Assembly (NCBI GenBank): GCA_020718275.1
Contig: DYSI01000001.1
Span: 23,574-87,573, forward strand
Source: Draconibacterium orientale
Lineage (GTDB): Bacteria; Bacteroidota; Bacteroidia; Bacteroidales; UBA1556
Direction of reading: 5' to 3'
DNA: 64,000 nt
Shown here: piece by piece, positions 6,156 to 61,981 of the stretch
Numbering within the stretch: the first letter of the stretch is position 1
Layout: each line of letters starts with the position of its first letter
Notes under the pieces: model-generated
What the model was told of the DNA's origin: nothing
Database searches by the model: none
The model's input: the letters and a program-made list of their open reading frames with translations, nothing else
Program-made: the position numbers and the translations under genes

Positions 6156-7498
6156 TTGTATTCAAGAATTCCACTTCTGATTTCAATAATATTAGTTTTA
6201 GGTGAATAAACAGATTTAACTATAACCTTATTATCCAAGGTTTCGGATACAACCACTAAAGGCTCATCGCTATAAAATTTCAAATGAAAAGTAAGTAAAC
6301 TATCCGATTTACCATGTTTGTTTTGCAAACGGGTAGTCCAAATTTCGTCTGGTGATTTTACGGTATCTATCATATTCGGAATATCCCTTAACCGGTTGTC
6401 TCCTTTTTTTAACTTTGATATAAACTTCAATTTTAATTCATTATCAAAAAGCACCAGTCTATTTGTGATGGCGCATTTGGCTGAAAAAGAGCCTTCAGGA
6501 GTTGATTTTGATTTGGTGGAAAGATCACTCCAAAATTTGTTTAGCTCAGCCTCGTTTTCTAAAGTTTTAATGCGTTCAGGGAACCTATTTGCATTGGCAT
6601 AGATTTTTTGAATGCTCTTGAGCCCATAGTTACGCTCGGCCATTAATGGCGAAACCTTCGCATTAGGATTCAAGAAGTACGGGTGTTTGTTTAAGTCATA
6701 TATAATCTGCGATTTGCCGCTATTATTTTGGAAGATGGGGTCTTTTACAACCCCTTTAATTTTTATCCCCGCTTCATCACCGGCTAATGCACCGGAAGAG
6801 TCGGATGAGGCTAATACGTTGCACCTACACCCCCAACCGTTTGGAGGATAGATAGTGTTCCAAGACAGATCGTTGATATGCGCCTTAAAATTGTCGAGCG
6901 CGGCGTGCGAATCCCTTACGTTTGCATCGCCCGCGGTACGGTAAACAAGGAAGGCATTATTTTTAGAATCGTTGACAAAATCGACCCATTTAGAGTTCAT
7001 TTGAGCCGTAGCAATAGCGTGATTGTACTCGGTGAGCATATACCTTTTATTGAAGAGAATATTGACGCCGGTAACGTCTTTCTTGAATTGGCTGTAGGAT
7101 TTTACTTTGCCATTATCATCAATTAAGAGCTTTGCCATTTGAAGCTGTTGGTTGAGCGATTTAGCGGCTGAGAACTGAAAGATATTATTGCGCAAATAAG
7201 ACAGCATAGCATTGTCGGGACTATTCCACTCCATCGACGTTGCTGAATAATTAGCATTAAGAGCCTCCATGAGTTTGCCGGAAGTGAAGGCGAATAACAA
7301 TTGATTGATTAGCTCAGGGTTTAAATCCTCGTGCAACTGTTTTGAAACAGCGTTTAAAAGCAGCCGCAATTCATCTTCAGACACTGCAAAAGACTCATCG
7401 ACCCGACCACCGCAAGCGGGACAGGTTTGATTGTAGATAGCCGATAAGTTGATTTGCAGCGCCCCTGGTATTGGATTAACCAAACCGGGGCTACTCAA
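6149..7498 (-). CDS. Phage minor head protein, Mu F / SPP1 gp7 family
   Basis: 449 aa. Hallmark motif GDANVRDSHAALDNF ... YPPNGWGCRCNV. It follows the portal gene with a 4-nt overlap. Confidence 0.85.
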   Translation of the reverse strand: MSSPGLVNPIPGALQINLSAIYNQTCPACGGRVDESFAVSEDELRLLLNAVSKQLHEDLNPELINQLLFAFTSGKLMEALNANYSATSMEWNSPDNAMLSYLRNNIFQFSAAKSLNQQLQMAKLLIDDNGKVKSYSQFKKDVTGVNILFNKRYMLTEYNHAIATAQMNSKWVDFVNDSKNNAFLVYRTAGDANVRDSHAALDNFKAHINDLSWNTIYPPNGWGCRCNVLASSDSSGALAGDEAGIKIKGVVKDPIFQNNSGKSQIIYDLNKHPYFLNPNAKVSPLMAERNYGLKSIQKIYANANRFPERIKTLENEAELNKFWSDLSTKSKSTPEGSFSAKCAITNRLVLFDNELKLKFISKLKKGDNRLRDIPNMIDTVKSPDEIWTTRLQNKHGKSDSLLTFHLKFYSDEPLVVVSETLDNKVIVKSVYSPKTNIIEIRSGILEYKK

Positions 7499-8736
7499 AA
7501 AAAATCGTAATGCTGTTTAGAAGGTGGTTGCTGCTGTTGGGCCTGTTTCATGCCCTTAACCGGCGCATTATAGCGTTCGGCAAAGTAAGCGGGATCGACA
7601 TCGCAATAAGTAGCCAAGAAGGTATCAATAGCAAGCTGCTGTTCGGAAGTGTATTCGATGCTTTCGTCCCAGTCGAAGCGATAACCGGCTAAAGGAAATC
7701 CGTGAATGTTAGTGAGAAAAGGGAAAAGCTTATTATTGATTACGTCGCGTATAAAATCCTTATCGGCCCAAAGCAAATTATCCTGAATACGCTCGTGTAC
7801 TTCGCCTTGGGATTTGGAAGCTCCATTATCCATCGTCATCGTATTACCCAAAATACCTTTGGACATTTCGGAGTTGGCGCGGTCGATACGCTTGTCATAT
7901 ACGTTGAAAGCGTCGCCCTGAGAGCTGCCAATGATTTGTAGCGTGGTTCCTTCGGGGAATAAGCCCCATGCCGCGCTACCCATGTTGGCTAACATGGACT
8001 TGATTTCGTTTTTATCTTTGACGTCCCTGGAGTTGGTAGTTCCGACTCGTATGGGCATTCCGAATATCTCGCCAAACTTATCCCAAAAAGCAAACTGATT
8101 TTTTTTAGAAATTGTCTGGGGGCACATTTTCAGAAGTAGCCCAAGGTTTTTGTTTTTTCCAACTGATATACACCAGTCCGCAAGAGGGCTAGTCGTATAA
8201 TCCAGGCCCTTTTTAGGCTCATCACTGGCGTCGCGAATAATTACGCCAAACTCCGGTATAACGTGCTCTCTGGGGACAAGCTCCACAGAGGTGAACCCTA
8301 GCCTAGGCTCGGTGATCCTGTTACCAAATTGAATAAGGCTGTGGCCATAAAAAACCGAATCAAGGCTTAAATCAATGAACTCCTTGAACCACTCAGCCTC
8401 GAATAGCTCAGTTAGTTCTGGTTTTTCCTTCCCGTTTTTATCAACGATCTTGAAACCCATGGCCATTGTTTCTGCTTTGCGGTTGCTCATGGCCCCGCTC
8501 AAGTGAAGGTCGATTACTGCATCGTCGTAGATGAGCAATAAGTTGTTGCGTTTTGGGTTTTCGTAATTGATGGCTTGTTGCCATGCCTGCCTCCATTTAG
8601 CCACATCTTTAGCAGTAAGCTGCTTGGTTGAAATGGCTAGGTCTATTATCATTGATTGCACCTCTTTACGTGCAAGGGCGTCTCTAAAATATGCTTCGTT
8701 TTCCATATTACCAGTTGTATGAATTAGGTGAATCAC
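7495..8736 (-). CDS. Portal protein (Mu gpH / DUF935-like by position)
   Basis: 413 aa, lying between the large terminase side and the MuF-like gene, which is the invariant portal position. The acidic C-terminal region and the size fit. Confidence 0.7.
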   Translation of the reverse strand: MIHLIHTTGNMENEAYFRDALARKEVQSMIIDLAISTKQLTAKDVAKWRQAWQQAINYENPKRNNLLLIYDDAVIDLHLSGAMSNRKAETMAMGFKIVDKNGKEKPELTELFEAEWFKEFIDLSLDSVFYGHSLIQFGNRITEPRLGFTSVELVPREHVIPEFGVIIRDASDEPKKGLDYTTSPLADWCISVGKNKNLGLLLKMCPQTISKKNQFAFWDKFGEIFGMPIRVGTTNSRDVKDKNEIKSMLANMGSAAWGLFPEGTTLQIIGSSQGDAFNVYDKRIDRANSEMSKGILGNTMTMDNGASKSQGEVHERIQDNLLWADKDFIRDVINNKLFPFLTNIHGFPLAGYRFDWDESIEYTSEQQLAIDTFLATYCDVDPAYFAERYNAPVKGMKQAQQQQPPSKQHYDFF

Positions 8737-9120: not shown

Positions 9121-10629
9121 TTAATAATTTGAATAAGAAGCTGAGCGTTGGCCAAGCTCCGGTTTAAAGTTTTCGATACGAGTACGCTTTTGAATCAAGT
9201 AAATAGCCCCTTCGTCGGCATCAGGAGCATCATCGGCCACACGGCTGCCTTTTTCGATAGCGAGCGTTTGCTCAATACCGCGAAGCATATCGGGGTCGTT
9301 TTGTTCGTCGATATTATAAGTAATAAATCCGCGTTCCCAGAGTGGGCTAATGGCTTCGATGCGCTGGAACTTATCGGGTTTTTTGCGATTGTCGGGGCGG
9401 ATAGGCAATTGATAGCTGCGAAGTTTACCCTCAGCTTCAAATTCATCTAAGAGGATGTCCTGATAAAATGAGGCCTCAATATAGTAATCACAAATAACTC
9501 CTTCAGGCAGCGACTCATGAAAGTCGTACCACCATTTAACCATTGAACTGACGGAAGCCTGCCGAACGAATGCTTTGATATGATGAAGCTGCGTTCCAAC
9601 TTTGCCCCATACTTTGATAGCCTTGTAGTCGTTTTTTGTGGTTCCCTTAAACGAGGGGTCGCAATATGCGATCATGTGGTCGTATTTTTTGAGCGAAAGC
9701 ATTTTACCCCACTTAATCCAGTCGTGTTTGAAAACCGCTCCTTCAGATACTGGGTTATTCATATACTCCTTTTGAAATCGGCGCTCGCCCATGAACTCCC
9801 GAACCTTTTGAATTTCCTCAACGGTGTATTTTTCGCTCCAGCTTGGCTTGCCATTTTTATCAATCGCGTTAACCTGAGTAACAAAAACGTCAGGGCGTTC
9901 AGCGATGCTAGATAGAATACAAAATTTCGCAATTTGGTTGCCAACTACGATAAAGCGGCCACGCCACATATCCATGGTGCCGCCTAATGCTTCGATACAC
10001 CAGTCGGTTGCTTTTCTTACCCTCTTTTCGTTTTCCACCAATTCGTCATCGTCAATATCGTCAATAACGATATAGTCGGGGCGTTTGCCCCGCTCTTTGA
10101 TACCTCTGGGAGATTGAGAGCGGCCAACAGCCATGAACATGCAGCCATCCTGCGTGTGAAACTCTCCATCTTGCCAGCTGCCATGATTGAATTGAACGCC
10201 ATAGTCGTGAATATAACGTTGGTTGTGTCCGAACTCGGCCTGAAGGTCGCCAAGTAGCCTGATTGCTGCATCTTCAGATTTTGAGGCCAGCAGCATTACA
10301 TTGATTTGTCGGGGCTCTTGAATTTTGAGCCACATAGGAATCATCACTCCCATGTGGGTAGACTTAGCATGTCCACGCGCCCACTTAAATACGGCCTTTA
10401 GATTGGGAGTTGTAAGGATTTTATTTGCCGCTTTAATGTGAAATTTAGCTGATGGCGTATTGGCAAAGTGCGGGAAGTAATAGCTTACAAAAAAGGCATA
10501 GTCCTTTCGGGCCCTGCTTAATCGGGACTGCTTTTGGCCAGGGGTTTCATTAAAATTAACCGCTGTTTTGTCTTGGATATTTTTACAATGCTCCTGCCAC
10601 TTTTTATATGCCGCGTCTAAATTTGACAT
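9121..10629 (-). CDS. Terminase large subunit
   Basis: 502 aa. Walker-A-like KWARGHAKST, Walker-B-like PDYIVIDDIDDDE, and a C-terminal nuclease-like region. It lies upstream of the portal. Confidence 0.85.
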   Translation of the reverse strand: MSNLDAAYKKWQEHCKNIQDKTAVNFNETPGQKQSRLSRARKDYAFFVSYYFPHFANTPSAKFHIKAANKILTTPNLKAVFKWARGHAKSTHMGVMIPMWLKIQEPRQINVMLLASKSEDAAIRLLGDLQAEFGHNQRYIHDYGVQFNHGSWQDGEFHTQDGCMFMAVGRSQSPRGIKERGKRPDYIVIDDIDDDELVENEKRVRKATDWCIEALGGTMDMWRGRFIVVGNQIAKFCILSSIAERPDVFVTQVNAIDKNGKPSWSEKYTVEEIQKVREFMGERRFQKEYMNNPVSEGAVFKHDWIKWGKMLSLKKYDHMIAYCDPSFKGTTKNDYKAIKVWGKVGTQLHHIKAFVRQASVSSMVKWWYDFHESLPEGVICDYYIEASFYQDILLDEFEAEGKLRSYQLPIRPDNRKKPDKFQRIEAISPLWERGFITYNIDEQNDPDMLRGIEQTLAIEKGSRVADDAPDADEGAIYLIQKRTRIENFKPELGQRSASYSNY

Positions 10630-12761: not shown

Positions 12762-12798
12762 TCAGAAATCAAAATCAGAAATCAAAATGAAAATCAAA
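12762..12798. repeat. 13-nt tandem repeat (about 2.8 copies) across the capsid gene start
   Basis: TCAGAAATCAAAA at 12762-12774 and 12775-12787, then a partial TGAAAATCAAA. The ATG at 12787 sits on the repeat junction. Confidence 0.7.
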
Positions 12799-13851
12799 TT
12801 TTTAATGTCAGTTTTTGCCAGTATCATGCTAAGCCTGATCATTGGCGGAGTGGTTGGCCAGGTGTTAGACGTTAGCCCTGTTGCCGTGAGCGGTGGGCTA
12901 TTTGCGTTGAGCTTTTTGCCCCAAATTCCGGTCGGAAGTTTAGGGGCGGGAGTATTAGTAGAAGTATGGACCGGAGAGCTAGTAAAAAAGCTTAGAGAGG
13001 TTCCTACGTTTTTACAAAAAATCCCATCAAAGAATGATCTTGTAAATAACAACGTAATTCACATGGTGGATGTTGGCGCAGACCCTGCTGTTCTGATCAA
13101 TAACACAACTTATCCAATAGCAGTAGCAAGCAGAGCGGACGGCGATATTGCAATTTCCCTCCATAAATTTGAGACTGAGAATACTAAGGTAACAGATGAC
13201 GAGCTGTATAGTTTAAGCTATGATAAAATTGGAAATGTGATTGAGACGCATAAAGATGTATTAGCTGAGGGAGAGGCCGATAAAGCGCTGCACTCTTTAA
13301 GTCCAACTACCAACACCGCTGACACTCCCGTGGTGCCCACCACCGGTGCAAGCAATGGAGAAACCCAAGCCCGTAAGAAAATGATACCTGCAGATCTGAA
13401 AAACATGAAAAAAAGATTTGACGATCTTAAAATACCAAAGCTAAAGGGCTCTCGCGTTGCCGTGTTGAGCAATGATCATATCAGTGATCTTTTAGACGCC
13501 GATGAGAAATTTGCTAGCCAGTATAACATTGATACATCCAACGGCAAAATTCCATATTTGTATGGATGGGAAATTCACGAATACACTGAGGCTCCCATAT
13601 ACAGCGTGGTGGCCACAGTGCTAACAAAAAAGGCATTTGGAGCTGCGCCAGACCCGGTAAATGACCAAATAGGCTCAGTATTCTTCTTCGCTCCAAGAGC
13701 ATTCCAGGCAACCGGAGAAACTAAAATGTATTACTCAAAAGCGGAAGGTGACCCTCAGAACCGAGAAAGCGTGGTGGGCTTCCGTCAGTGGCACATTGCT
13801 CTACCCAAAAAATGGAAAGGGTTTGGCGCTATCGTATCAGCTAAAGTATAG
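12787..13851 (+). CDS. Major capsid protein
   Basis: 354 aa, located after the protease/scaffold and followed by a strong hairpin terminator. The core begins around VEVWTGELVKKLRE. The N-terminal ~45 aa are unusually hydrophobic, so the start is uncertain. Confidence 0.65.
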   Translation: MKIKFLMSVFASIMLSLIIGGVVGQVLDVSPVAVSGGLFALSFLPQIPVGSLGAGVLVEVWTGELVKKLREVPTFLQKIPSKNDLVNNNVIHMVDVGADPAVLINNTTYPIAVASRADGDIAISLHKFETENTKVTDDELYSLSYDKIGNVIETHKDVLAEGEADKALHSLSPTTNTADTPVVPTTGASNGETQARKKMIPADLKNMKKRFDDLKIPKLKGSRVAVLSNDHISDLLDADEKFASQYNIDTSNGKIPYLYGWEIHEYTEAPIYSVVATVLTKKAFGAAPDPVNDQIGSVFFFAPRAFQATGETKMYYSKAEGDPQNRESVVGFRQWHIALPKKWKGFGAIVSAKV

Positions 13852-14558: not shown

Positions 14559-14838
14559 AGCAGCATTAGGCAAGATTGCGCAGGACTACATGAGGCGCAA
14601 CAAAGTTGAAAAGGTGTACGCCACAGAAGATGGCACGCTTTTTTTGAAGCCGAATCCGGCAAATAGTCATAAGAATACCGTTGGCGGCGAAGTGCATGAG
14701 CTTGTTTTGGATATTGAAGCTGAAGCAAAAGCACAAGCGGCAAAGGAAGCCAAAGAAGCTGAAGCAAAAGCACAGGCGGAGAGACAACCGAAAAAGTTAA
14801 AACACAAAAAGGAGGAAAATAATGTTACCAGATATTAG
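14551..14838 (+). CDS. Hypothetical phage protein with E/A/K repeat tail
   Basis: The ATG at 14551 (overlapping the holin stop) is preferred over the upstream start at 14515. The C-terminus EAEAKAQAAKEAKEAEAKAQAE is encoded by a 26-nt near-repeat (14716-14741 and 14755-14780). Confidence 0.4.
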   Translation: MNKAALGKIAQDYMRRNKVEKVYATEDGTLFLKPNPANSHKNTVGGEVHELVLDIEAEAKAQAAKEAKEAEAKAQAERQPKKLKHKKEENNVTRY

Positions 14839-16048
14839 AATAGAAAAAGAACAGGGCTTAGGCCGTCGCACGCCAAGCAGCGACATGGTGGTAGGCTTGG
14901 TAATGGGCGGAATATCCACCGCAGCATACGCCACACTTGGCGCCACAGTAGAACTTCGAGGCGTAAGCGATGCCAAGGCCTTAGGCTTTACTGCAGCCTA
15001 TGACGAAGCTAATAAAGTATTAGTATATCACCATATTGAGCGCATATTTGTGCGAAACAAAAGTGCGAAAGTGTATCTGAAGGTGGTGGCCCAAACGGTT
15101 ACGTTGGCCCAAATGGCTGACGTTACGTTGACCCATGTAGCGGGCCTATTGCTTGACGCCAAGGGAGAAGTAGGAGTTGTGGGCATTGCGCTTAACCCCG
15201 GTGCCGGCTATACAGAAACCCTAATAACGGGACTAAGCTCTGATGTAGTGGCAGCGATACCCAAAGCTCAAGCATTGGTAGAATCAGAGTTCACGAGGCA
15301 TCGTCCGGTGTTTGTGGTGATAGAAGGTCGCCATTTTAACGGCACGTCAGCGGCAGCGCTTGATTTGCGTAGCAAAGAAGCTGAAGGAGTGGCAGTGGTG
15401 ATAGCGGCAGATTATAGTATAAGCCAAAAAGAAATTGGTGGCACCAAGCCATATCAATACTACGCGGCTATAGGAGATACGCTCGGAATGATTAGCGCGG
15501 CCAAAGTGAATGAGAATATTGGATGGGTAGGTAAATTTCCGTTAACCGATACTTCGTTAGGCATGTTTGTAAAGGCAGCCTTGAGTAGCAGCTTAGCTAT
15601 TGAAACCTATGAAGCAGATTATGCAACCCTTCACGATAAAGGATACATTTTTGCAAAACCCCATACTGGCAAAACTGGTTACTACTTTAATAGTAGTCCA
15701 AGCTGTGCAGCAATGGATCAGGATGAGGCCTATATTGAAAATGCCCGCTGTCTTAATAAAGGAGCAAGGCTTATTAGAACCTCTACCCTTGATGCTTTGA
15801 ATAGCCCTGTGCTATTGAATGAAGATGGCACGGTACAGTCAGTAGTGATAGGAGCTCTGGAAGCTATGGCCGAGGAAGGCCTTAGCCAGATGCAGCGCGG
15901 TGGAGAAATCAGCAATTTTGACGTATATATCGATCCAGAGATTGTATTCTTAGAAAACGAGGAATCGTTGGACGTAGAATATAGTTTGCAGCCGGTTGGA
16001 GTACTGAGAGAGCTGAAGGGAAAAATCAAATTAGTAGCAAAAATTTAA
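14822..16048 (+). CDS. Tail sheath protein (by size and position)
   Basis: 408 aa, directly upstream of the tube-sized gene, the chaperone pair and the tape measure. Confidence 0.55.
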   Translation: MLPDIRIEKEQGLGRRTPSSDMVVGLVMGGISTAAYATLGATVELRGVSDAKALGFTAAYDEANKVLVYHHIERIFVRNKSAKVYLKVVAQTVTLAQMADVTLTHVAGLLLDAKGEVGVVGIALNPGAGYTETLITGLSSDVVAAIPKAQALVESEFTRHRPVFVVIEGRHFNGTSAAALDLRSKEAEGVAVVIAADYSISQKEIGGTKPYQYYAAIGDTLGMISAAKVNENIGWVGKFPLTDTSLGMFVKAALSSSLAIETYEADYATLHDKGYIFAKPHTGKTGYYFNSSPSCAAMDQDEAYIENARCLNKGARLIRTSTLDALNSPVLLNEDGTVQSVVIGALEAMAEEGLSQMQRGGEISNFDVYIDPEIVFLENEESLDVEYSLQPVGVLRELKGKIKLVAKI

Positions 16049-25745: not shown

Positions 25746-26365
25746 ACGGAAAACTAAAAAAATAACGAAGCCATAATAAATAGGACTCTGAGCGGTCGGC
25801 ACGACCCAGCGAGGAGTTTGATGGTTTTGAGCTGGGTTGGTGTAAAGTCGAGCCTCGTTTTACATGATTTAGACCAAGCTCTTGTGTATCCCTCTACAAA
25901 CCGCGCCTTGTAATTCAAGATACGACTCTTTATTTTTGCTTTTTTTTAAAAATCGAATGACATAAAAATAACAAAACCGCGAAGGCAAATAATCAAGATC
26001 GTAAGCTGATGGCGGCAAAGTGGGCAAACTCAGATATTTTATGTCAATGAAAATGAAATCGCTAACTTGCTTCCAATAAATTTGGAGATGTAGTTTTAGG
26101 TAGCGGCACTTTTTACTTTTATCAAAAAAAATCTACAAGATCATTGTTAGAAGAAGCCATAATATTTATATTTTTACTTGCGAACTTAAATGAAATCTAT
26201 TCGAGTTTAATTCAAATAAAAGTCAATGGCTATCAGCAAGGATTCTTATGTAAATTATTGAAATTCTTTTGGAATTTTCACAAAGTATTATTTGGATTAA
26301 AAACCTAAGATTACGAAATACAGAAAGCAACACAAAACAAAAGACTTGAGATAAAAACTGCATAA

Positions 26366-27433
26366 ATGAATAAACGGATTTGGACATATATTCTGGGAAT
26401 CAGCGCCGCTTTTCTGATTTTAATCCTAACAGATTTTCTATTGGTTTATGCCGAGCAAAATCATCCCGACAGTAAAGTACATTCCTTCGGAGATGCCGTT
26501 TGGTATATGATAGTTACCATAACATCAGTAGGTTATGGCGACATTGTGCCAGTTACGCCTTTAGGAAAAGCCATAGGATACTTCTTTTTATTCACAAGTT
26601 TAGTTGTTCTCGGAGTTTTAATCAGTAGTATGACATCAAATATTTCCAAAATGATACAAGAAAACAAATTAGGTTATAACGGAACTAATTTCACCAACCA
26701 TGTAATATGTATTGGGTGGAATGATTTTAGCCGGATGGTGGTAGACGAAGTCTTGCAGGCAGAACGCAAAGTAGCCATTATCACTAACAACAAAGATGAA
26801 ATCGATTTGATTTACAAACAGTACTCCAATAATGACGTTTTTGTACTTTATGCAGATTACCAGGATTTAGATTTACTCAACAAAACCAACCCAAACGAAT
26901 CCTCAGAGGTATTTTTAGGTTTTAATAATGATACCGAAACCTTAATTTACGTCATTAATTTCAAAAAGAAATATCCAAAACCAAATATTGTGGTAGCCAT
27001 CAACAACCACAAATTGAGGGACACTTTTCATACCGCAGGCGTAAAACATGTGGTAGCAATCAACGAATTAGCAAGCAAATTAGTGGCTTCGTATGTATTT
27101 GAACCAGATGTCGCGAATTTGAATATTGATTTACTAAGTTCTGCAAAAAATGACGAGGACTTTGATAATCAACAATATGTAGTTACTGAGAGTAATCCTT
27201 TTTTGAATAAGAATTATGATGATGCCTTTGTAGCTCTCAAAATGAAGTATAATATTGTGCTCCTTGGAATCACCAAACACAAAGATGGTCACAATCAATT
27301 AATCGTAAATGCAAGAGCAGATACCATCATCGAAATAAACGATTACCTGATTATTATGGTTGGCGGAAAAGTAAAACGAAGAGTAGAAAAACTTTTTGGT
27401 ACTAAAGAAGGTAAAATATGTTGTAAAAGTTAA
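26366..27433 (+). CDS. Two-TM potassium channel with cytoplasmic RCK (TrkA-N/TrkA-C-like) domains, MthK-like
   Basis: Selectivity filter TITSVGYGD between two TM helices. The C-terminal region has a Rossmann-like fold (HVICIGWNDFSRMVV) and a TrkA-C-like end. Confidence 0.85.
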   Translation: MNKRIWTYILGISAAFLILILTDFLLVYAEQNHPDSKVHSFGDAVWYMIVTITSVGYGDIVPVTPLGKAIGYFFLFTSLVVLGVLISSMTSNISKMIQENKLGYNGTNFTNHVICIGWNDFSRMVVDEVLQAERKVAIITNNKDEIDLIYKQYSNNDVFVLYADYQDLDLLNKTNPNESSEVFLGFNNDTETLIYVINFKKKYPKPNIVVAINNHKLRDTFHTAGVKHVVAINELASKLVASYVFEPDVANLNIDLLSSAKNDEDFDNQQYVVTESNPFLNKNYDDAFVALKMKYNIVLLGITKHKDGHNQLIVNARADTIIEINDYLIIMVGGKVKRRVEKLFGTKEGKICCKS

Positions 27434-27506
27434 TTTTTCAATTACATTTGTATTCAAATTTGTAATACACGTTTTAATAAAGCATACAAAACTTAAAATA
27501 AAAACT

Positions 27507-28601
27507 ATGAAAAGTAAATTTACAATTTTCCTTGCAGTAATATTGATTTCGATTTTATTTGGTAATATTACAATGGCGCAAAATGCTAGTGATGTTGAAG
27601 CACCTAAATTGACAATAGTGACGGGCTTTGTTGGTGGATCTAATTACCAAATGGCGATGGATATGCAACGCATGACCCGTAAAGAATTAGGGATTCCAAA
27701 GTATAAAATAGTAACAGAATCAAAAGCTGTTTTAAATGCTAAAGGCGATACTGTTCGTGAAGAACCAATTGAAGATGGCGGAATTGGAGCTCCAAAGTTT
27801 GAAACAATTGAGCATACAGTTGCTACTGGTGACACTATTAACTTCTTAAAAGTTTTGGATTCGGAAGGTAGTTACTACAATTTTATCAAAATAAATAAAT
27901 CAGGAACCGAGCTAGCCTTTATTCAATACGATGTTTTGCTTTTTGAAGCGATGCAAGACCTTAAACGTTCTTACAAAAAAACTGATGGAATAAGAGTTTT
28001 GTTGCCAATGGGTTCAGAACAAATTCATATTATCACCCTCAAATCTGATGATAAAAAAGGTATTACCAAATTTGCTGACCTTAAAGGCAAAAAAGTTGGT
28101 ATCGGTTCAAGTTTGATGGGAACAAATATTACCTCTAAATACATTAAAGAAGTTACCGGTATGAAATGGGAAGATGTGGAAATTCCTTTCGACAAATCCT
28201 TCAAAGCCCTATTCAATGGTTCTATTGATGCCTTTTTCTATGTAGGTGCTAAGCCAGTTAAGGATTTAGCCAATGCAACCCCTTCTATGAAAAACAAACT
28301 TACGCTTATCTCAATTCCTCAAAACGAAACCCTTGATAAAGCATATCAAAAAGTAACCATCACCACCGAAGATTACAAATGGCTTAGTGAAAATATTGAA
28401 ACTTACGCCGTAAGATCATTATTAGTAACCTCACTAAACGGACATAATGCAGAGATAGAAGCAAATATTCAAAAACTATTACAAATTGTAAAAGACAAAA
28501 AAGGTTCAGACCAAAACCACCCAAATTGGAAAATGATCGAATTCAAAAAAGATGATTCCATTGATTGGGAATACTATCCTGCAGCTTTAAAATTATATTA
28601 A
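27507..28601 (+). CDS. Secreted TAXI-type (TRAP-associated/PhnD-like) solute-binding protein, orphan
   Basis: Signal peptide MKSKFTIFLAVILISILFGNITMAQ. Motifs include TGFVGGSNYQMA and KKVGIGSSLMGTNITSKYI. The ATG at 27507 is preferred over the track start at 27396, which overlaps the channel gene. Confidence 0.6.
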   Translation: MKSKFTIFLAVILISILFGNITMAQNASDVEAPKLTIVTGFVGGSNYQMAMDMQRMTRKELGIPKYKIVTESKAVLNAKGDTVREEPIEDGGIGAPKFETIEHTVATGDTINFLKVLDSEGSYYNFIKINKSGTELAFIQYDVLLFEAMQDLKRSYKKTDGIRVLLPMGSEQIHIITLKSDDKKGITKFADLKGKKVGIGSSLMGTNITSKYIKEVTGMKWEDVEIPFDKSFKALFNGSIDAFFYVGAKPVKDLANATPSMKNKLTLISIPQNETLDKAYQKVTITTEDYKWLSENIETYAVRSLLVTSLNGHNAEIEANIQKLLQIVKDKKGSDQNHPNWKMIEFKKDDSIDWEYYPAALKLY

Positions 28602-28610
28602 ACCCAACTT

Positions 28611-28647
28611 GGGCAAAAAAAGCGAGCTAATGGCTCGCTTTTTTTTT
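28611..28647. terminator. Long bidirectional hairpin terminator
   Basis: GGGCAAAAAAAGCGAGC-taatg-GCTCGCTTTTTTTTTGCCC, a near-perfect palindrome with A and T runs. Confidence 0.8.
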
Positions 28648-28928
28648 GCCCTTTTAAATGCAAGTTTGGCTTTGCATTACAAACCATATCTAGCCATAAG
28701 ATCAAGTTTAAAGCCCCCACATTAATCATAGAATTGCATTACCATATCCAGTAAATCAGACGGCACATTCTCCATAAACACATGTAAATCAGCAACCAAG
28801 TTACCTTAATAGGTTGGTTATGCAAAAACCATATTCTACAGAATCATCTTGGACAAAAAAATTATGGTTGGGGATAGATGAGAGAAAATCATTATTAACG
28901 ACAGATCAATCATCAATAAGCACGATTG

Positions 28929-49204: not shown

Positions 49205-51076
49205 CTAATCCTCTTTGGTTTCCGACGCTATTTTATTTGACAGGTCATCGCTGTCTTTGATTATTTTGGGTTTAAAAACCACAGAGAAAACATGTAAAGC
49301 GCGATATTGCTGCGAAACATCTTCGGCATATTGCTCAGAATAATAACTTTCGGTCAAATAGGCCGTTCCACCAGCAATCTGTACTTTTTCGAGATCTGAA
49401 AAACGTTGGTGGATTGCAAGTTCTTGTTCCTTATTTTGAGGCACTACGGCAATCCTAAAAAGATCGATATCGTCGGCTTCACCAATATATTCCCTGATGA
49501 TTCCTGTTAATTCCGCTTGAATTAGAGCCTCTTCCTTGCTAACAACGCCATCGGCACTGATAAGTAAGTTAATCACGTCAATCAAATGGGAGGCTTGCTC
49601 AAATGAAGGTGAACTACTTAAATAATGCCTAAGCGCCTGCCGTAGCAAATTATAGTGATTACCACTTTCATCCTTGTATTTTTCAATTTCATCCCAATCG
49701 ATATTCAAATGCCAATTGCTGGCAAAATGCTCAATATACTTTTTTTCCTTCTCATCTAAATCATTATCAATCATCGCTAAACGTCCTAGAATTTCTAAAA
49801 TCTTATCCGCAGCAGTAGGTTGAAATAATGATTTAGCTAAATCTCCAGCCTCACGACGTTCTAGATTAAGTGCTTTGAATAATAATTTAATAAAACTTGC
49901 TCCTTTATTCGTATTGACAAAAAAACCGATACCAATAACAAAACTAGTTGAACTCGCTAAAATCCACAATATATTATTAGAAAGTTGGGCATAACCTTCA
50001 ACACTAAGATTTTTGATAGCGAAAGAAGAATTTATTAGCAAGGAAATAAACATTGCAGAAATGGAAATACTTTCTGCCACCATTTGCTCGTGTTTACGTT
50101 TCCATAATTTATTGATAATGAAGTAAACCTGAAAGAAACTCAACAAAGCAGCCAGCCAACCGATTGAATCAAGGACTTTTTCTTTCATAGTATATTCCTC
50201 CTTAAAAACAGGCCAATCCACGTTTTCCATGTCAGAAAATTCCACACTTTTCCACTTTGGATGCGAATACTTATTTAATTGAATGCCATGCAAATTATAT
50301 TTCAAATCAGCATATAAACTATCCATCATCAGAAATTTAGCAGCATCTAAATTATTAACATTCAAAACTATAACTGTTTTTATGGTATACGTATCTACTT
50401 CATCCAGTTGCCATGGGTAGGTTTTTTTGGGAATAGTTCGACGCACATAACATTGATTATCGCCTGAAAGTTTAATTGAAACCAGTTGCAATTGGTTTTG
50501 TATTTCGGGTGACAAAGAGGTCACCACATTAGAAGGAGCAGCCCCAACGAAGAAAAAAGCGTCAATTTGATTATTAAGTAAGGCGGGAATAGAACGCTCA
50601 AAGTCGAGCAAGGAGTCTGTCCAATCAACGATTGCCATCTTTTTGATTGACTGAGCGGTAAAATAAGTACCTGAATTAATTCCACCCACGCCGACACGTT
50701 TGCCGATCAAATCATTAACTGTTTTTATATTATTCCGTTTTAGGCTAATAATTTGAATTTCCTCGTCGTAAAGTGGTAGAAATACTTTAATCTTTTCTTT
50801 AATGGAGGGGGCTTTTTGTCCAAAATCATAAAGCACATCATACTGAATAAAAGCTAATTGGATGCTATCAGTCTGCAAGAGGTGTAAATTCTCAATACTA
50901 CCTTGAGAGGGATATATCTTAGTTTGCACGCGGGTGTTGTTACTTATATCGGTTGCAAACTCATTATAAACTTCGGATTTTAAGCCCGAAGCAATGTTTA
51001 TTTGACTCCAAACAGCCGTAGGGTTTAAAGCCATTAAAAAACTTATTATCAAAAACTTAAATAAACTCTTGCGCAT
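49205..51076 (-). CDS. Fusion protein: secreted TAXI-type binding domain + 3 TM helices + TerB-like domain + unknown C-terminal domain (623 aa)
   Basis: Signal peptide. The binding domain is a paralogue of the 27507-28601 product (LAFIQYDVL, KRVGVGGINSGTYFTAQSI, IDAFFFVGAAP). Three hydrophobic helices follow. Next comes LGRLAMIDNDLDEKEKKYIEHF ... LISADGVVSKEE, which is TerB-like. Confidence 0.6.
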   Translation of the reverse strand: MRKSLFKFLIISFLMALNPTAVWSQINIASGLKSEVYNEFATDISNNTRVQTKIYPSQGSIENLHLLQTDSIQLAFIQYDVLYDFGQKAPSIKEKIKVFLPLYDEEIQIISLKRNNIKTVNDLIGKRVGVGGINSGTYFTAQSIKKMAIVDWTDSLLDFERSIPALLNNQIDAFFFVGAAPSNVVTSLSPEIQNQLQLVSIKLSGDNQCYVRRTIPKKTYPWQLDEVDTYTIKTVIVLNVNNLDAAKFLMMDSLYADLKYNLHGIQLNKYSHPKWKSVEFSDMENVDWPVFKEEYTMKEKVLDSIGWLAALLSFFQVYFIINKLWKRKHEQMVAESISISAMFISLLINSSFAIKNLSVEGYAQLSNNILWILASSTSFVIGIGFFVNTNKGASFIKLLFKALNLERREAGDLAKSLFQPTAADKILEILGRLAMIDNDLDEKEKKYIEHFASNWHLNIDWDEIEKYKDESGNHYNLLRQALRHYLSSSPSFEQASHLIDVINLLISADGVVSKEEALIQAELTGIIREYIGEADDIDLFRIAVVPQNKEQELAIHQRFSDLEKVQIAGGTAYLTESYYSEQYAEDVSQQYRALHVFSVVFKPKIIKDSDDLSNKIASETKED

Positions 51077-61593: not shown

Positions 61594-61897
61594 TTGTCCG
61601 TTAAAAAATTATTTTTAGTCCATTTCGGCAAGCGTTCGACTGAGCTCACGCCGAAGTCTCAATGCACCGCCTACGGGACTTTTTGTCAAAACGTAATATT
61701 CTTTCTACCAATATTTTGTCCATTTCGGCAAGCGTTCGACTGAGCTCACGCCGAAGTCTCAATGCACCGCCTAACGGGATAGCCCTGTTAAGGGCTTAAT
61801 GTTGGTAGAAATAAAGTAACCCTAAAAAATGATAAAGTCCCGTAGGGACTAAATATACCAGGCATTTCGGCAATTTAGTAGTTTTTTTATCGGACAA
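61594..61897. repeat. Composite non-coding repeat element (MITE/REP-like or structured RNA) with terminal inverted repeats
   Basis: Terminal inverted repeats are TTGTCCGTTAAAAAA (61594-61608) and TTTTTTTATCGGACAA (61882-61897). Two identical 56-nt modules lie at 61618-61673 and 61718-61773, exactly 100 bp apart. Inverted arms lie at 61670-61715 and 61798-61846. A partial third seed lies at 61863-61873. Confidence 0.7.
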
Positions 61898-61981
61898 CAC
61901 TAAATCAAAATTAAGAATCTCTAGACTTTTGCGAATTATACGCTAAATTTGCATTTATTTTTATCAGTTTAAAAAAAACCA

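Follow-up and report, generated by a model that had tools for sequence, protein, structure and literature searches.

A conserved gene pair of an RCK-type K+ channel and a TAXI-family binding protein in Bacteroidales: a candidate ligand-sensing partnership

Solute-binding proteins are known to feed transporters and to signal via chemoreceptors, kinases, and cyclases. A K+ channel is absent from these partners in the literature that was searched in full text, which yielded no account of a K+ channel paired with a binding protein, TAXI or other. A 64-kb stretch of Draconibacterium orientale DNA (contig DYSI01000001.1, positions 23,574 to 87,573 of the forward strand), hereafter the window, carries such a pair: the gene of a channel with a cytoplasmic RCK domain is followed, on the same strand, by the gene of a secreted TAXI-family protein. 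What does a binding protein of this family do beside an ion channel? The first-pass annotation of the window had proposed an operon in which the sensing of an extracellular ligand is coupled to K+ flux. Here, we describe the two proteins and their conservation, and weigh the explanations for their linkage. The pair recurs in related genomes, mostly together with a third gene, and we regard it as a serious possibility, somewhat short of an even chance, that the binding protein is the periplasmic ligand-sensing partner of the channel. The features of the pair are given below by window position.

26366–27433, + strand: RCK-type two-transmembrane (2-TM) K+ channel of MthK-like architecture, 355 amino acids (aa) (open reading frame (ORF), Pfam, MthK alignment)
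26522–26542, + strand: K+ selectivity filter TSVGYGD, channel residues 53–59 (translation)
26702–27055, + strand: RCK N-lobe (TrkA_N), channel residues 113–230 (Pfam and sequence reading)
27434–27506, + strand: intergenic spacer of exactly 73 nucleotides (nt) after the TAA stop of the channel gene, with no terminator-like structure
27443–27450, + strand: TACATTTG, which matches the -7 box TAnnTTTG of Bacteroidota sigma-A and lies 56 nt ahead of the ATG of the binding-protein gene (sequence)
27507–28601, + strand: secreted TAXI-family solute-binding protein, 364 aa, from ATG 27507 to stop 28601 (TIGR02122, AlphaFold2 (AF2), Foldseek)
27690–27845, + strand: insertion of about 52 residues in the binding protein, residues 62–113, modelled as a long beta-hairpin (AF2 strands 63–74 and 98–111, alignment, translation)
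28611–28651, + strand: intrinsic, bidirectional-looking terminator hairpin with an A-run and a T-run (folding)

What the first-pass annotation observed of these genes is borne out, with every element at the coordinates given. A 2-TM channel with a TSVGYGD filter and a cytoplasmic RCK domain does lie at 26366–27433 by Pfam and MthK alignment; a secreted binding protein does follow on the same strand after a 73-nt gap; the pair is closed by a strong terminator; and no TRAP or ABC components are found nearby, as judged by tblastn with DctM queries across the window and by the neighbouring genes.

The neighbourhood survey that the first-pass annotation had suggested finds the pair conserved. Orthologues of the binding protein form about 68 clusters with 42–67% identity and a length of about 360 aa, and all are from Bacteroidales or Bacteroidetes metagenome-assembled genomes (MAGs). 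A scan of GTDB species genomes with the binding protein returned 79 loci; of the orthologous loci among these, 12 extend upstream, and every one of them has the channel gene as its immediate upstream neighbour on the same strand. Look-ups of the exact protein added seven loci with the same channel and binding-protein arrangement (L083–L085 and L087–L090), among which L089 duplicates L002 of the scan, and L087 and L088 duplicate L009. Altogether, 19 of 20 assessable genome or assembly loci have the channel gene directly 5' of the binding-protein orthologue. In metagenome contigs, some of which overlap the genome set, the channel is upstream in 23/23 loci with at least 1.1 kb of upstream DNA, and here the adjacency persists down to 38–41% identity in the binding protein and 55–57% in the channel. 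The gap between the two genes ranges from 59 to 247 nt.

The adjacency thus recurs in about 40 related loci, while the DNA downstream of the pair differs between them: MlaD and amidase genes, UvrA, Por_Secre_tail genes, and others occur, in at least five downstream contexts. Because the two genes stay together across such different flanks, chance adjacency is untenable. The module belongs to a clade within Bacteroidales, of Prolixibacteraceae or Draconibacterium-like MAGs.

Outside the window the conserved unit contains a third gene, and the order reads: TerB-like gene (divergent), RCK K+ channel, TAXI-like binding protein, terminator. The TerB-like gene encodes about 130 aa and stands 5' of the channel gene in 18/18 genome or assembly loci that extend far enough in that direction (for example L002:8269-8661(-) and L089:3076-3468(-), and equivalents in the others) as well as in all assessable metagenome loci, with 62–78% identity. 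Its family assignment is a weak one, since the TerB model (PF05099) scores 23.1 bits (E 9.4e-5) against a cutoff of 24.4; the homologue in L090 carries a "faint" TerB mark on its record, and two ADG-containing repeats can be read from the sequences. The gene has no match anywhere in the 64-kb window.

The channel family also allows the origin of the module to be placed. A family search gave 723 matches, and the channels linked to a binding protein make up one subclade of this larger family. Stand-alone relatives of the channel with 51–55% identity, in other Bacteroidota, have neither an adjoining TAXI gene nor a TerB-like gene. This distribution argues for a single origin of the module, as a unit, on an older channel; the TerB-like gene and the binding protein appear to have emerged together with the channel clade, at its base.

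The signals around the genes suggest joint but not simple transcription. The spacer of the window folds no better than shuffled sequence (dG -5 kcal/mol, z +0.7), and the same is true in four other loci. Directly 3' of the binding-protein gene, the hairpin at 28611–28651 has a dG of -26 kcal/mol and a z of -5.1, with none of 200 shuffles folding as well; it was overlooked by a simple pattern scan and detected by folding, and a strong hairpin with a T-run stands in the same place in every other locus with downstream DNA. Rfam gave no match in the window, and a structured RNA was not found in the spacer or the upstream region. The -7 consensus of the Bacteroidota primary sigma factor is quoted as TAnnTTTG in PMC7366714, and such a box occurs 39–69 nt before the binding-protein ATG in 14/17 and 13/21 loci of two locus sets, where its chance occurrence per spacer is 3–22% by shuffling. 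This conserved box suggests that the binding-protein gene probably has a promoter of its own, in addition to probable read-through from the channel gene. The term operon used in the first-pass annotation is therefore only partly apt: the genes share a strand and a conserved terminator with no hairpin between them, but the gap holds the conserved box and a probable promoter.

The channel has one RCK domain per polypeptide, placed C-terminal to the pore. Pfam assigns Ion_trans_2 to residues 17–93 (1.8e-15, 57 bits) and TrkA_N to residues 113–230 (4.5e-13, 50 bits). At the site of the nucleotide-binding GxGxxG motif, the RCK N-lobe reads IGWNDFS and is without that motif. Among solved structures, MthK is the best match to the full architecture (residues 14–243, E about 2e-10), and only MthK entries align over both pore and RCK; the pore is also similar to the pores of KvAP and KcsA. 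A Met at residue 96, in the linker between pore and RCK, is conserved. The protein is 100% identical to protein cluster P0121. Filter residue S54 is fixed in the clade of channels associated with the binding protein and is mostly T in the stand-alone relatives.

The downstream protein is a TAXI protein by both sequence and fold. NCBIfam TIGR02122 (TRAP_TAXI) gives 105.7 bits against a cutoff of 84.35, and Pfam NMT1_3 (PF16868) gives 72.9 bits (4.4e-20) against a cutoff of 27; because of the insertion, the family-model match covers residues 114–325 only. The first-pass label "TAXI/PhnD-like" is thus upheld in its first half, whereas the PhnD-like (Phosphonate-bd) match reaches only 16 bits and lies under its cutoff. 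An AF2 model built from an alignment of 40 orthologues has a mean predicted local distance difference test (pLDDT) of 83.6. In a Foldseek search of this model against the PDB, ranks 1–7 are all TAXI structures (VcGluP, TtGluBP, VCA0144, and Ehrlichia 4DDD) with TM-scores of 0.62–0.78 normalised to the target, and the top matches VcGluP and TtGluBP have 0.78 at 18–19% identity.

The protein is predicted to be exported. Residues 1–24 form a signal peptide, with a hydrophobic N-terminal helix at residues 3–22 in the AF2 model. A24/Q25 is conserved across the 40 orthologues, with Q25 invariant. We take the Bacteroidetes "Q-rule", a Gln after the signal peptidase I site, to apply here, which would make Q25 the mature N-terminus. 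With no lipobox cysteine present, it is expected to be a soluble periplasmic protein. The insertion lies between helix 1 and strand 2, is 27–53 aa long among 40 orthologues, and is missing from canonical TAXI proteins in an alignment with these and with paralogues.

The ligand-binding cleft was mapped by profile alignment to VcGluP and TtGluBP and by the published VcGluP site (PMC11574862). VcGluP residues Q93, E125, G156, and S75 correspond to Q140, E171, G205, and S122 of the binding protein. Q140, E171, G205, T206, S119, G121, Y123, and N125 are invariant in 40/40 orthologues, and the cleft appears to be under strong purifying selection. VcGluP Y45 aligns to position 46, which is Y in 22/40 orthologues and N in 18/40, including the window protein; the adjoining Y47 is kept in 38/40. 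In VcGluP, Q93 and E125 hold the alpha-amino group of glutamate (PMC11574862). Because Q140 and E171 match these residues, an amino-acid-like ligand would be a reasonable guess, and no more than that at 18% identity.

If this protein served transport in the usual way, a TRAP permease might be expected close by. The permease queries were ORFs of about 680 aa directly downstream of proteobacterial TAXI genes, one of which was confirmed as DctM (Pfam, 328 bits). In tblastn these DctM-type queries had no match in the 64-kb window, where no ABC permease is found near the pair either. In the genome scan, no TRAP permease was found within 10 kb of any of 44 Bacteroidota TAXI-like loci, counting orthologues and paralogues. 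As a positive control, a DctM-type permease was adjacent in 21 of 35 proteobacterial TAXI loci in the same scan.

This result extends beyond the channel-linked proteins. A large radiation of free-standing Bacteroidota TAXI-like proteins of about 300–410 aa with a conserved QYDVL motif was seen (L014–L044 and L114–L161), and, for the paralogues whose surroundings were inspected, the adjoining genes are unrelated ones, encoding glucose-6-phosphate isomerase, a sugar kinase-like product, and a BNR-like secreted protein. At the 10-kb scope, this whole radiation is genetically uncoupled from TRAP permeases. The window itself contains one further relative.

49205–51076, - strand: 623-aa paralogue with an N-terminal TAXI-like domain, three TM helices, and a cytoplasmic helical plus small alpha/beta domain (tblastx, Pfam, AF2)

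Pfam places NMT1_3 at residues 43–239 of this protein, and homologues of 618–623 aa (P0069–P0076) form a family of about 50% identity across MAGs. The protein looks like a receptor rather than a transporter. A TAXI-like domain fused to a three-TM non-transporter argues that, in this lineage, the domain serves non-transporter membrane proteins as their extracytoplasmic module.

Two observations on these relatives stand apart. In L090 (5184-8446), the binding-protein gene is followed by a convergent gene for a 626-aa TAXI-like TM fusion, which suggests that the two types of paralogue arose by local duplication. A link through TerB between the module and the 623-aa paralogue was considered and rejected: both have weak TerB matches in Pfam, but BLASTP and hhalign (Prob 0.25%) find them unrelated.

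Conservation across rearranged flanks, the origin of all three genes together, a terminator in common, constraint on the cleft, and the absence of a transporter partner nearby argue for a functional link between channel and binding protein. The explanation that we favour, in the tentative degree given at the outset, is that the binding protein left TRAP transport for another partner, as happened with TAXI and GltS in Bordetella, and would sense a ligand, probably an amino-acid-like one, in the periplasm. When in one of its liganded states, it would dock on the small outer face of the tetrameric channel and alter K+ flux by pore occlusion or by action on the selectivity-filter gate, while the RCK ring would integrate a separate cytoplasmic signal. 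A non-covalent partner could not pull the gate helices as in GluR0, which leaves blockage of the mouth or action on the filter gate; both modes are purely conjectural. The physical coupling of the two proteins is something that we infer from gene order only. In its most specific form, the proposal is a two-component or "split" ligand-gated K+ channel, in which a free periplasmic TAXI-like protein would capture an amino-acid-like ligand and, docked on the outer mouth, turn this external signal into altered K+ conductance and membrane potential; inputs from the cytoplasm would come from the RCK ring and possibly also from the TerB-like protein. We hold this more specific form to be rather unlikely.

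Several observations weigh against such a partnership. One locus, L086:5381-7038, is the only one without the channel: 230 nt separate the TerB-like and binding-protein genes, in a context of ParAB, DapB, LepB, and the TerB-like gene on one side and UvrA on the other that is intact, and the binding protein is full length with all invariant residues and retains a TATCTTTG box ahead of its gene. The predicted promoter of the binding-protein gene could likewise let its expression be uncoupled from that of the channel. A Rosetta-stone search found no channel–TAXI fusion among the 120 closest matches listed or the top 150 of 3410 representatives; ten long representatives scanned by Pfam proved to be tandem TAXI–TAXI proteins, one caspase–TAXI protein, and one with a T2SS-G-like tail, with no channel domain. 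The outer face of the channel is tiny. When a conserved docking surface was sought on it, the turret (residues 31–37) proved highly variable in the associated clade, more so than in the stand-alone relatives, and the only positions that are tighter in the associated clade (I60/V61 after GYGD, D43, and H39) may simply reflect its narrower range. The permease search covered the 64-kb window and 10 kb around the loci, and a more distant permease or receptor may exist. Finally, the beta-hairpin insertion was considered as an adaptor specific to the channel and rejected, because channel-less paralogues (L014, L016, L017, and L025) also have insertions there. The first-pass reading of ligand sensing coupled to K+ flux is accordingly supported in part, by conservation, the lack of a TRAP permease nearby, and the constrained cleft, and weakened by L086, the lack of a fusion, and the variable turret.

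Three other explanations of the linkage deserve consideration. The one that survives best is that the two proteins serve a shared physiological programme without touching, for instance one of K+ and glutamate, the classic osmotic pair, or of ion and amino-acid homeostasis, with the binding protein handing its ligand to a transporter or receptor encoded elsewhere or acting alone. The conserved -7 box of the binding-protein gene, its intact state in L086 away from any adjacent channel, and the lack of a fusion protein or a conserved turret would all be expected here, and the cleft residues resemble those of glutamate-binding TAXI proteins, one of which, VcGluP, has been linked to osmoadaptation (PMC11574862). 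On the other hand, the 44 loci without a TRAP permease within 10 kb put no candidate partner in sight, and linkage through many rearrangements of the flanks is stronger than that usually kept by co-regulated independent genes that can each have a promoter. We consider this explanation doubtful on balance, though not lightly dismissed.

A second explanation puts the TerB-like protein at the centre: the unit would be the TerB-like protein and the channel, through cytoplasmic regulation of the RCK channel, or the TerB-like and binding proteins, and the remaining gene would be a passenger of synteny inherited within a single clade. The presence of the TerB-like gene wherever enough upstream DNA is available (18/18 genome or assembly loci and all assessable metagenome loci) speaks for it, as does the fact that L086 keeps TerB-like and binding-protein genes without a channel and the window keeps channel and binding protein without a TerB-like gene. 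Yet the clade has all three genes together from its base, relatives with a stand-alone channel lack the trio, the cleft of the binding protein appears to be under strong purifying selection, and the TerB assignment falls below its cutoff (23.1 bits versus 24.4), so that we judge this explanation improbable.

The weakest explanation, a stress or anti-phage module in which a TerB-like sensor would control a membrane pore, by analogy with TerB-containing defence systems, draws on the occurrence of TerB-like proteins with pore-forming membrane proteins, e.g., in Dionysus (bioRxiv 10.1101/2025.09.30.679545), and on the prophage that the pair abuts in the window, but it is very improbable, as PADLOC gives no match for the channel, binding protein, TerB-like protein, or fusion paralogue, the prophage adjacency is specific to this window while other genomes place the module among housekeeping genes (ParAB, DapB, LepB, UvrA, MlaD, and LptD) and not in defence islands, and the channel, its K+ filter intact, is one of a widespread family of housekeeping type.

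The prophage bears instead on the missing third gene. The window begins inside this prophage, whose left end and integrase lie outside the view, and its genes are as follows.

1–24730, no strand assigned: myovirus-like prophage segment (terminase, portal, major head, sheath, and baseplate hub by PHROGs; tape measure by Pfam)
7495–8736, - strand: prophage portal (PHROGs)
9121–10629, - strand: prophage terminase (PHROGs)
12787–13851: prophage major head (PHROGs)
14822–16048: prophage tail sheath (PHROGs)
17211–19211: prophage tape measure (Pfam)
19825–20769: prophage baseplate hub (PHROGs)

The guanine-plus-cytosine (GC) content is 41–45% in the prophage versus 33–38% in the host part. On the other side of the pair, on the opposite strand, lie a MlaD-like gene and an amidase gene, and beyond these LptD, a split transketolase, VanY, HisRS, and UDP-glucose dehydrogenase. 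L089 shares the MlaD, amidase, and LptD of the window, with LepB and the TerB-like gene on its upstream side; between 26453 and about 40560 the window is collinear with L002, and synteny with both loci breaks just upstream of the channel. Since these loci share the downstream side and carry the TerB-like side, the prophage block appears to occupy, or to have displaced, the LepB/TerB-like side in this genome. Nucleotide comparison of the 620 nt without an ORF upstream of the channel gave no homology with the other loci, and the junction of the prophage is not placeable to the base.

Between the prophage tail genes and the channel, at 24834–25745, two apparent gene fragments were noted: a formyltransferase-like ORF (a weak Pfam match, below cutoff) and 103 aa from the C-terminal part of a Fic domain, with QPFMDGNKRTAR as the motif. 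The 620-nt region lies between the Fic fragment and the channel and includes a GC-richer stretch at about 25760–25900; neither a tRNA nor an Rfam match was found in the fragments or in this region. A structured repeat of about 200 nt occurs at window positions 61669–61899 (-) and at L089:3700-3900, where it sits between the TerB-like gene and the channel. The two copies are about 76% identical and contain GTCCCTACGGGAC hairpins and a long inverted repeat, TTCTACCAATATT / AATATTGGTAGAA. The repeat has no Rfam match and is possibly a miniature inverted-repeat transposable element (MITE)-like or repetitive extragenic palindromic (REP)-like element. Among the representatives of this TAXI-like family are other architectures: P0300 (596 aa) joins a caspase (Peptidase_C14) to a TAXI domain, P0334 (720 aa) is a tandem TAXI with a tail like protein G of the type II secretion system (T2SS), and P0242 (1137 aa) has multiple tandem TAXI repeats.

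What we describe is then a binding protein apparently recruited to a non-canonical membrane partner, with a function predicted from sequence. If the coupling were only regulatory, the locus would still represent a conserved, uncharacterised three-gene module of ion homeostasis in marine and sediment Bacteroidales. If it were physical, the pair would offer a simple bacterial system for the gating of a tetrameric K+ pore by an external ligand without a covalent link, and the split channel, if real, would be the first tetrameric ion channel that depends on a binding protein. It would also extend the recent finding of non-TRAP partners for TAXI proteins.

Compared with known systems, the binding protein is closest to the canonical TAXI proteins of TRAP transporters, TtGluBP (1US4/8U79) and VcGluP (8S4J/9IBO, with VcGluQM). 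It has the same fold (TM-score 0.78 to the target), scores above threshold with the family hidden Markov model, and conserves the equivalents of the ligand-contacting Gln, Glu, and Gly. It differs in being only 18–19% identical, in an insertion that ranges from 27 to 53 aa in the orthologues, and in having no DctQM permease within 10 kb of any Bacteroidota locus. The channel is in turn closest to MthK, a Ca2+-gated RCK K+ channel (1LNQ/3RBZ), with which it shares a 2-TM GYGD pore followed by a cytoplasmic RCK of similar length, the lack of a GxGxxG nucleotide motif, and a Met in the pore–RCK linker. The likeness is one of architecture, as sequence similarity is low (E about 1e-10), and MthK has no associated periplasmic protein.

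The nearest parallel for a change of partner is TAXI-GltS in Bordetella pertussis (BP0403/BP0402), where a TAXI protein serves a non-TRAP partner (PMC12344293). In both cases a TAXI gene adjoins a membrane partner that is not DctQM, and the binding protein has an extra element compared with canonical TAXI proteins. In Bordetella, however, TAXI works with a secondary glutamate transporter, and its added element is a dimer-forming globular domain at the N-terminus, whereas the window neighbour is a tetrameric K+ channel, which has no means of carrying an organic ligand across the membrane, and the addition takes the form of a beta-hairpin insertion. The function has been demonstrated there, while for the window pair it is one that we infer. 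The binding-protein-dependent chemoreceptors and sensor kinases also have a binding protein that signals via a membrane receptor and not a transporter; the 2021 review of binding proteins in signalling that covers them (PMC8050422) contains no occurrence of ion channels.

The pairing of a binding protein with a channel has one precedent in prediction. Tasneem et al. (2004) predicted from operons that stand-alone type II periplasmic binding proteins (PBP-II) cooperate with bacterial pentameric channels (PMC549065). There, as here, a stand-alone binding protein is encoded beside a membrane channel and not a transporter, but those channels are of the Cys-loop type and the present one is a tetrameric K+ channel. 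The combination of binding protein and tetrameric pore brings to mind GluR0 and the ionotropic glutamate receptors (iGluR), as the first-pass annotation had noted, and the analogy stands as a functional one, with topology and covalent linkage differing. In both systems, a bilobed module of binding-protein type would recognise an amino acid outside the cell and be coupled to a tetrameric pore selective for K+. The ligand-binding domain of GluR0 is joined covalently to an inverted pore, around which it is inserted, and exerts a pull on the gate helices. In the window there are two ORFs: the first ends in a stop codon, and the 73-nt gap that follows contains a probable promoter for the second; the two polypeptides belong to a channel of ordinary pore orientation with an RCK domain and to another family of binding proteins. 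If the proposed coupling is correct, the pair would be a non-covalent counterpart of the binding-protein-plus-pore combination thought to be ancestral to glutamate receptors, and would bear on how channels of the glutamate-receptor type were assembled from a binding protein and a K+ channel.

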